From a virus (Duplodnaviria > Heunggongvirae > Uroviricota > Caudoviricetes), in the IMG/VR virus record IMGVR_UViG_2534681941_000042, positions 1-5,716 of that record: DNA of 5,716 bases; one strand, 5' to 3'. A program made the position numbers. The first letter of the stretch is position 1; the number at the start of each line of letters is the position of its first letter. This document shows positions 1 to 3,000 of the stretch, piece after piece.

Positions 1-3000
1 GAAATCTGTGATAACGACTATGCCGGGACCATGACCGGCGGACGTATCCTGTCCATCGATGCCGCCAGCCGCACCCTGACACTGGACCGTGAGGTGACCC
101 TGCCGGAGACCGGTGCCGCCACGGTGAACCTGATTAACGGCAGCGGTAAGCCGGTGAGCGTGGCCATCACTGCACACCCCGCGCCGGACCGGATACAGGT
201 CAGCACCCTGCCGGATGGCGTGGAGACATACGGTGTGTGGGGGCTCTCCCTGCCGTCACTGCGTCGTCGCCTGTTCCGCTGTGTCTCCATCCGGGAAAAC
301 ACGGACGGCACCTTTGCCATCACGGCGGTGCAGCACGTACCGGAAAAAGAAGCCATTGTGGATAACGGGGCCACTTTGAGCGACTGTGCGGTTCGCTGAA
401 CAGCGTCATCCCTCCGGCTGTGCAGCACCTGACGGTGGAGGTGAGTGCGGCTGACGGTCAGTATCTGGCGCAGGCGAAATGGGACACGCCGCGGGTGGTG
501 AAGGGCGTGCGCTTCAGTCTGCGCCTGACCAGTGGAAGCGGTGAGGGCAGCCGTCTGGTGACCACCGCCATCACTGCGGATACAGAGCATCGTTTCAGTG
601 GTCTGCCGCCGGGGAATACACCCTGACGGTCAGGGCGATTAACAGTTATGGCCAGCAGGGGGAACCGGCCATCACCACGTTCCGGATTAATGCGCCAGCA
701 AAACCCGCCACCATTGAACTGACGCCGGGGTATTTTCAGATAACGGCGGTACCGGTTGCTGGCGGTGTATGACCCGACGGTACAGTTTGAGTTCTGGTTT
801 TCGGAGACAAAAATCGCAGATACATCTCAGGTGGAAACCTCTGCCCGTTATCTGGGGAGCGGCAGTCAGTGGACTGTCCAGGGAAGCCGGATTAAGCCGG
901 GGACGGATTTCTGGTTTTACGTGCGCAGCGTCAACCTGGTGGGGAAATCTGCGTTTGTGGAAGTCAGCGGGCAGCCCAGCAATGATGGTGAAGGGTATCT
1001 GGAATTTTTCCGGGAAAAAATAGGAAAACTGCATCTGGCTCAGGGGCTATGGGAGCTGATAGACAACAGCCAGCTTGCGGATGAGATGGCGGAGATGAAG
1101 ACCACCATCACGGAAACCCGCAATGAAATCACACAGACGGTCAGTAAAACGCTGGAGAACCAGAGCGCCATCATACAGCAGATACAGCGCGTGCAGAAGG
1201 ACACAAATGATGACCTGGCTGCGCTGTACATGCTGAAGGTACAGAAAACGAAAGATGGCATACCCTATGTTGCCGGTATTGGAGCAGGGATTGAGGATAC
1301 TGATGGCCAGCCCCTGAGCAACATACTGCTGCTGGCTGACCGTATTGCGATGATTAACCCGGAGGACGGCAACACCACGCCGTTATTGTGGCGCAGGGGA
1401 ATCAGTTGTTCATGAACGATGTGTTCCTGAAACGACTGTTTGCGGTGAGTATCACGTCATCCGCCAATCCCCCGACGTTTTCCCTGACGCCGGAGGGCAG
1501 GCTGACCGCAAGAAATGCTGATATCAGCGGTAACGTGAATGCGAATTCCGGGACGCTCAACAACGTCACGATTAACGAGAACTGTCGGGTTCTGGGAAAA
1601 CTGTCCGCGAACCAGATTGAAGGCGATCTCGTTAAAACAGTGGGCAAAGCTTTCCCCCGGGATTCCCGTGCACCGGAGCGGTGGCCATCAGGGACCATTA
1701 CCGTCAGGGTTTATGACGATCAGCCGTTTGACCGGCAGATTGTTATTCCGGCGGTGGCATTCAGCGGCGCTAAACATGAGAGAGAGCATACTGATATTTA
1801 CTCCTCATGCCGTCTGATAGTGCGGAAAAACGGTGCTGAAATTTATAACCGTACCGCGCTGGATAATACGCTGATTTACAGTGGCGTTATTGATATGCCT
1901 GCCGGTCACGGTCACATGACGCTGGAGTTTTCGGTGTCAGCATGGCTGGTGAATAACTGGTATCCCACAGCAAGTATCAGCGATTTGCTGGTTGTGGTGA
2001 TGAAGAAAGCCACCGCAGGCATCAGTATCAGCTGAATTTTATAACCCATATACGGGCGCCAGAAATGGCGCCTTTTTTATTGCAGAAAAGCGAGAGGTAA
2101 TTATGCGTAAACTTTATGCCGCCATTTTGTCCGCAGCCATCTGTCTGGCCGTATCCGGTGCGCCTGCATGGGCGTCTGAACATCAGTCCACGCTGAGCGC
2201 GGGGTATCTTCATGTCTCGACGAACGTTCCTGGCAGCGATGAACTGAACGGGATTAACGTGAAATACCGTTATGAGTTTACGGACACACTGGGGATGGTG
2301 ACGTCGTTCAGCTATGCAGGAGACAAGAATCGCCAGCTGACCCGTTACAGCGATACCCGCTGGCATGAAGATTCCGTTCGTAACCGCTGGTTCAGCGTAA
2401 TGGCGGGGCCGTCTGTGCGCGTGAATGAATGGTTCAGCGCGTATGCGATGGCGGGTGTGGCTTACAGCCGTGTGTCGACTTTCTACGGGGATTATCTCCG
2501 CGTAACTGACAACAAGGGGAAAACGCACGATGTGCTGACCGGAAGTGATGACGGTCGCCACAGCAACACGTCTCTGGCGTGGGGAGCTGGCGTGCAGTTT
2601 AACCCGATCGAATCCGTGGCCATTGATATTGCTTATGAAGGCTCCGGCAGTGGCGACTGGCGCACTGACGGCTTCATCGTGGGTGTCGGCTATAAATTCT
2701 GATTAGCCAGGTAACACAGTGTTATGACAGCCCGCCGGTTCAGGCGGGCTTTTTTGTGGGGTGAATATGGCAGTAAAGATTTCAGGTGTACTGAAAGACG
2801 GCACAGGAAAACCGGTAGAGAACTGCACCATTCAACTGAAAGCCAGACGGACCAGCAGCACGGTGGTGGTGAACACGGTGGCCTCTGAAAATCCGGATGA
2901 AGCCGGTCGTTACAGCATGGACGTTGAGTACGGTCAGTACAGCGTCATTCTGTTGGTGGAAGGATTCCCGCCGTCACATGCCGGGACCATCACCGTGTAT

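Follow-up and report, generated by a model that had tools for sequence, protein, structure and literature searches.

Does the tail-tip gene J of a lambdoid prophage carry four single-base frameshifts in the bacterial genome, or do these breaks belong to the draft sequence from which the viral record was taken? The question is raised by a stretch of 5,716 nucleotides (positions 1 to 5,716 of IMG/VR record IMGVR_UViG_2534681941_000042, hereafter the window), in which a first-pass annotation made from the sequence alone described J as interrupted while the neighboring genes remained intact. Two explanations were offered at that time, namely a prophage that is defective for tail function and kept for its lom and effector cargo, or a sequence carrying homopolymer indel errors. 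As discussed below, the frame breaks are really in the deposited sequence, yet they are not a biological feature. We put at roughly 88% the probability that they are consensus errors, arising where two paralogous copies of J were mixed at the end of a draft contig.

Results

Origin and gene content of the window

Exact look-up of the Lom protein, together with a locus sequence that is the same as the window, places this DNA at bases 1-5716 of contig AIFL01000021.1 (158 kb) in the draft assembly GCA_000249395.2. The source genome is that of an O157:H7-type E. coli with several lambdoid prophages and near-identical J genes, and the window holds the tail end of a lambdoid prophage. Its first gene is a lambda-type J, represented by its 3' 2 kb and encoding the tail tip attachment/host specificity protein (1..2035, plus strand), which is truncated at window base 1 by the start of the contig and lies in five frame segments. 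J is followed on the same strand by lom, an intact gene for an Ail/Lom outer-membrane beta-barrel of 199 amino acids (2103..2702), by an stf-type side tail fiber gene with collagen-like repeats (2767..4071, 434 amino acids), and by a small ORF of 89 amino acids with a tail-fiber C-terminal domain (4073..4342). All three are open and give full-length Pfam matches, which bears out the earlier statement that lom and stf are intact downstream of J. Both the annotated orthologous loci and the Pfam matches of the window ORFs show J, lom, and stf in the order that belongs to the tail region of lambdoid prophages. The stored gene calls for AIFL01000021.1 lack stf and have in its place a 283-aa ORF on the opposite strand (window 2990-3841, minus); this call, running through the collagen-like GC-rich repeats, is a gene-caller artifact.

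In complete O157:H7-type genomes the orthologous locus adjoins tRNA-Ser and hyaABCDEF, its gpJ is annotated as intact (1157 amino acids), and its tccP2-like gene is annotated as frameshifted. The corresponding tccP2/EspF-repeat effector pseudogene of the window, so assigned from the annotation of complete genomes, is on the minus strand (4467..5218) and contains 3.3 copies of a 141-bp proline-rich repeat at 4488-4958. A fragment of espV then runs off the window end (5543..5716, minus; coordinates transferred from NZ_AP026101.1). Throughout 4467-5218 the window equals the copy in NZ_AP026101.1, and that tccP2-like copy is the one annotated as frameshifted in the complete genomes. As a result, the effector cargo of this prophage is itself a pseudogene, and the suggestion that the prophage has been retained for such cargo is weak.

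The window J as a single gene

Alignment to the orthologous J of NZ_AP026101.1 (locus L001), the complete genome nearest to the window, places four single-base indels in the window gene, these being -1 at 368-372, -1 at 609-610, +1 at 757-758, and -1 at 1385 (sites 1 to 4, respectively). The coding frame follows the order 1, 3, 2, 3, 2, with every segment open in its own frame. We also compared the window with a panel of 84 J alleles, comprising 80 IMG/VR loci and four genome loci. Allele lengths at sites 1 to 4 are fixed in 84 of 84 panel alleles (42 or 45, 26, 32, and 28 nt), and the window, with 41, 25, 33, and 27 nt, is the sole deviant; moreover, 79 of 83 panel alleles are open over the J region. 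The alignment and the 84 alleles thus confirm the four single-base frameshifts and five frame segments at the places where they were first noted. The net shift, which had been said not to be a multiple of 3, is -2 in the alignment to the NZ_AP026101.1 gene.

As deposited, J has no single continuous frame, but four single-base repairs yield an open frame of 678 codons matching residues 480-1132 of lambda gpJ. The repaired protein contains, in order, the domains Ig_J (Pfam E-value 2e-40), Ig_J_second (5e-40), Phage_Tail_Tip (5e-21), and Ig_GpJ_C (1e-37). With phmmer it matches PDB 8iyk_J at E=4.6e-231, query residues 1-355 corresponding to gpJ 480-836, and its C-terminal half matches gpJ fragments. 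Because the repaired frame is open, the gpJ domains are ordered, and the homologues are free of shifts, we conclude that the segments make up a single J gene whose frame is broken four times, rather than several genes. Programmed frameshifting, or a row of five independently started genes, could appeal to the presence of ORFs in different frames and to nothing more, and we assign these ideas essentially no weight. The segments follow one gpJ collinearly, domain after domain, the shifts are absent from all 84 homologues, which keep one frame through all four sites and conserve none of them as a shift site, and a programmed mechanism would require four shifts with a net change of -2. In addition, segments 2-5 are without convincing starts, their candidates being a GTG or TTG within a domain or an ATG that closely follows the shift. 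Collinearity and the comparison with homologues therefore exclude both ideas, and with them the option, named at the outset as one that would refute the claim of an interrupted J, that the segments are separate genes with their own starts.

Bases from two copies of J

Two references were used in examining the origin of the bases in the window: copy A, which is the ortholog at the tRNA-Ser/hya locus in NZ_AP026104.1, and copy B, which is the J gene of another prophage in O157:H7 strain TW14359 (L003). These references come from two different strains, neither of which is the source strain. Of about 100 variable sites in window 1-1450, all match A or B with the exception of the four indels and of one base in a stretch where A and B are misaligned, and there are about 30 switches between A and B along the window. 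When both parents were taken from one complete genome (F8798), 25 sites were left unexplained, implying that the source strain had parents other than those of F8798, namely its own J copies. This patchwork alone is no proof of an artifact, since mosaicism is also found among natural alleles of J. A leave-one-out parse divides the window into 30 segments, which puts it in the upper tail, and a few natural alleles require 27-31, so that fine-scale mosaicism alone was rejected as the mark of an artifact. Contig L005, which has an identical Lom protein, was considered as a closer relative of this J and proved not to be one.

Three of the four sites lie exactly where the two paralogous copies differ in a complex way. 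At site 1 (368..373, plus; -1) the window has GGGGCCACTTTGA where copy A has GGGGCCAGCTTTGA and copy B has GGGGCGCACTTTGA, and the site falls within window 372-395, a region that is 3 bases longer in one of the two copies than in the other. At site 2 (606..614, plus; -1) the window has GCCGCCGGGG, copy A GCCGCCGGGGG, and copy B GCCGCTCGGGG, the window sequence being the part that is common to both copies. At site 3 (754..760, plus; +1) the window has GGTTGCTGG and copy B has GGTGCTGG, while a sister contig in the same assembly has GGTCTGG (-1). Site 4 (1383..1387, plus; -1, TTT to TT), located by alignment to the intact J and to the 84-allele panel, is the only window site without an adjoining A/B difference, the nearest being about 10 nt away; it is either a plain run-length error or a real mutation, and it looks like the former.

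The local contexts of the changes are G5 to G4 at site 2, T3 to T2 at site 4, and GGTG to GGTTG and GCCAGC to GCCAC at the others. It is therefore loosely true that each break lies in a homopolymer or dinucleotide run, as the first-pass annotation had it, but the clearer shared trait, present at three of the four sites, is a difference between A and B. When the window indels are considered alone, three of four are within 2 nt of such a difference (P ~0.05). Taking two contigs of the assembly together, the number becomes six of seven distinct indels, against a background of 24% of positions (P ~1e-3).

Differences from the orthologous prophage are also seen in the two genes that follow J. The middle of stf (window ~3233-3700) has about 11 differing sites relative to the ortholog and is 9 bp shorter, with the length difference at 3676, and it matches at 99.8% and equal length the stf gene of a third prophage in O157:H7 genomes, for example that of TW14359 (~1.72 Mb). 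Copy mixing, whether by natural recombination or by assembly chimerism, thus reaches beyond J, and in stf it is in frame. Within the otherwise A-type lom gene there are lone B-type bases at 2141, 2189, and 2528, and one of the three has an A-type base just 2 nt away. Since an exact match to the Lom protein exists in one unrelated assembly, GCA_012266485.1, these bases may be natural polymorphisms.

A sister contig with the same terminus

Frameshift 1 closes a product of 122 amino acids, and a second contig of GCA_000249395.2, AIFL01000050.1 (424 kb), has the coding sequence for this product at its own end, which falls at exactly the base of J with which the window begins. Positions 1..418 (plus) are base-for-base identical to the end of AIFL01000050.1, and this identity includes frameshift 1 and the mixed A/B bases. 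Past 418 the sister contig diverges and has indels of its own at ~757 (-1), 809 (+1), and 1244 (-1), the last being a change from A6 to A5, so that the two contig ends together have seven distinct frameshifting indels in the same 1 kb of J. At a block of 8 variable sites (694..730, plus) the window is B-type and AIFL01000050.1, which is otherwise mostly of the copy B type, is A-type, constituting a reciprocal swap; the indels at site 3 are reciprocal as well, +1 in the window and -1 in the sister contig.

Two marks of an assembly artifact can be recognized in these data. First, the contig ends inside multi-copy sequence, its base 1 being in a gene for which E. coli genomes have a median of 2 matching places and as many as 16. 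Second, terminal consensus has been reused and variants have been swapped, as seen in the identity over 1-418, the swap at 694-730, and the +1/-1 pair at site 3.

The end of AIFL01000050.1 also combines an A-type receptor-binding end of J (1451-2035, with 1 difference in 600 bp) with a B-type lom (2036-2800). Natural copy B differs from A at about 180 sites in the receptor-binding end. Either the second prophage truly has an A-type receptor-binding domain, or this contig is chimeric too.

Indel excess and absence of the lesions elsewhere

If J were a genuine pseudogene that had gained four frameshifts, leaving the prophage without a working tail tip to survive as a cryptic element, substitutions should outnumber indels, the flanks should have diverged, and independent sequences of the lineage should have the same lesions. 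Relative to the 84 panel alleles, the private changes of the window are four frameshifting indels and one substitution, whereas the panel alleles pooled have 5 private indels and 257 private substitutions (window vs panel, Fisher P ~3e-6); the panel maximum is two private frameshifting indels in one allele (L065). Moreover, the 4,986 bp of chromosome that follow the window are 100% identical, with 0 differences, to NZ_AP026101.1, the J gene of which is annotated as intact at this locus. In a lineage so close to one with an intact J there has been no time for four neutral indels, and less still for seven in two copies. The indels are also concentrated at the contig end. No single-base indel was found past base 1400 in the remaining 9.3 kb of the contig that were examined, for which the density in the first 1.4 kb would predict ~27.

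The same lesions were sought in complete E. coli genomes, in phage records, and by exact-protein look-ups, and none was found outside GCA_000249395.2. Among the J copies in 5,426 complete E. coli genomes, none exceeds 97.9% identity over 1-2035 and none exceeds 95.4% over 330-800. A private 30-mer has no exact match in genome and viral contig collections, and AIFL01000021.1 is the only recorded source of the 219-aa fragment that lies between frameshifts 3 and 4. Comparison with the orthologous prophage in related genomes, a check suggested in the first-pass annotation, has thus been carried out, with the outcome that J is intact at the locus in NZ_AP026101.1 and that the lesions are absent elsewhere.

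Real lesions of J are seen in related prophages. A 207-aa C-terminal J ORF is also recorded from seven further assemblies; six have unrelated accession prefixes and are without any indel relative to copy A. In all three of these six that reach the relevant part of J there is a GAG to TAG stop. This change, at the equivalent of window ~1349-1351, is found in OU349844.1, CAJGEQ010000043.1, and an ERZ27309422 contig, and it splits J into products of 933 and 207 amino acids; the allele is a genuine pseudogene allele, apparently in circulation, that is present in at least three independent assemblies. The seventh case, a contig end in AIFR01000025.1 with a neighboring WGS accession prefix, has a J indel at an A/B-variable spot, and this assembly is probably from the same project as AIFL. 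A copy of J in TW14359 has an internal stop, and in F8798 a B-type J (L086 1736-5214) is annotated as frameshifted. The tape-measure gene (93_161312) of the orthologous prophage (L001 1-1356) is likewise annotated as frameshifted in complete genomes. Single lesions are common in the tail genes of O157:H7-type prophages.

There is, then, some precedent for decay of J, given that O157:H7-type prophages are often defective, with single J and tape-measure lesions annotated in complete genomes, that several independent assemblies share a nonsense allele of a close relative of this J, and that the neighboring tccP2-like gene is a pseudogene. We nevertheless regard a genuine pseudogene as quite unlikely in view of the 4:1 ratio of private indels to substitutions, the identical flank, the restriction of the lesions to one assembly, and the largely open panel alleles with their maximum of two private frameshifting indels. 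The sister contig also speaks against decay, having the same first lesion and three of its own in reciprocal patterns.

Discussion

The observations made directly here are the position at a contig end, the terminal sequence shared by two contigs, the bases drawn from two copies, the excess of indels, and the absence of the lesions elsewhere, and from these we infer what may have happened at the level of the reads. The first ~1.4 kb of AIFL01000021.1 lies within the J repeat of a multi-prophage genome, and its consensus would have been built from the reads of at least two J copies, A being the true copy at the tRNA-Ser/hya locus and B that of another prophage. Where A and B bases were adjacent or out of register, a consensus taken column by column would lose one base or retain one too many, giving the -1, -1, and +1 changes at sites 1-3. 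On this model, sites 1 and 2 may reflect an alignment of A and B with two gaps that compensate for each other, both gap columns having been removed, a reading of the two sites that we infer from their sequences: GGGGCCACTTTGA could have arisen from GGGGCCAGCTTTGA and GGGGCGCACTTTGA, and GCCGCCGGGG from GCCGCCGGGGG and GCCGCTCGGGG. Site 4 would be a simple error in the length of a T run. In the strain itself, J at this locus most likely forms a single uninterrupted frame, as it does in the most closely related complete genomes.

Of the two explanations offered initially, that of indel errors is essentially right, but the probable cause is the merging of paralogous copies rather than the miscalling of homopolymers. 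The defective prophage is unsupported, given that no other assembly has the lesions, that private indels exceed substitutions 4:1, and that the flanking chromosome matches without a difference that of a strain in which J is intact at this locus. Ordinary platform errors, that is, homopolymer miscalls at low coverage near a contig end with no mixing of paralogs, would account naturally for the run-length changes at site 2 (G5 to G4), site 4 (T3 to T2), and sister position 1244 (A6 to A5), and for the fact that every error is near a contig end. The affected runs, however, are very short and longer ones are untouched, as exemplified by A7 at 1014-1020. There are zero indels in the next 9.3 kb, six of the seven indels coincide with A/B differences, and sites 1 and 3 are A/B hybrids in different registers rather than changes in run length. 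Plain run-length miscalls account for part of the pattern at most, and as a full explanation they are extremely improbable.

It is also conceivable, if very improbable, that the lesions are real and that about four single-base indels, one of which the two genes have in common, arose in each of two paralogous J genes through error-prone exchange between prophage copies, for example by patchy heteroduplex repair in gene conversion. If true, such exchange would amount to a mutagenic recombination that quickly inactivates redundant tail genes. Lesions that were real would otherwise make this merely one more tail-defective prophage of the O157:H7 type, which is already a familiar object.

The mixing of paralogous copies that we favor calls for caution with draft genomes containing several prophages, in which the merging of near-identical copies where contigs end can make tail genes seem multiply frameshifted. 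To call a prophage "defective" or a gene a "pseudogene" on the basis of such contigs would be wrong.

Three known systems can be compared with the window. The first is lambda gpJ, the central tail fiber (PDB 8iyk, 8k35, 8xcj), with which the window J shares the domain order Ig_J, Ig_J_second, Phage_Tail_Tip, and C-terminal receptor-binding domain, and in lambda, as in the window, J is followed by lom and then stf. Unlike lambda gpJ, the window J is deposited in five frame segments. Its receptor-binding end, which aligns with gpJ as separate matched stretches, is the allele that the O157:H7-type prophage has at the tRNA-Ser/hya locus, and it differs from that of lambda, which binds LamB. The second comparison is with the genuine J pseudogenes of O157:H7-type prophages, which belong to the same gene family and occur in the same kind of host genome; those aligned here have a single point lesion each, whereas the four indels of the window are unique to one assembly. 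The third is with a recognized class of assembly error in drafts with many lambdoid prophages, the collapsed or mis-phased repeat consensus at the end of a contig. The window does not differ materially from this class, and it shares with it the contig end, the multi-copy gene, the reused terminus, the bases of two paralogs, the swaps, and the excess of indels.
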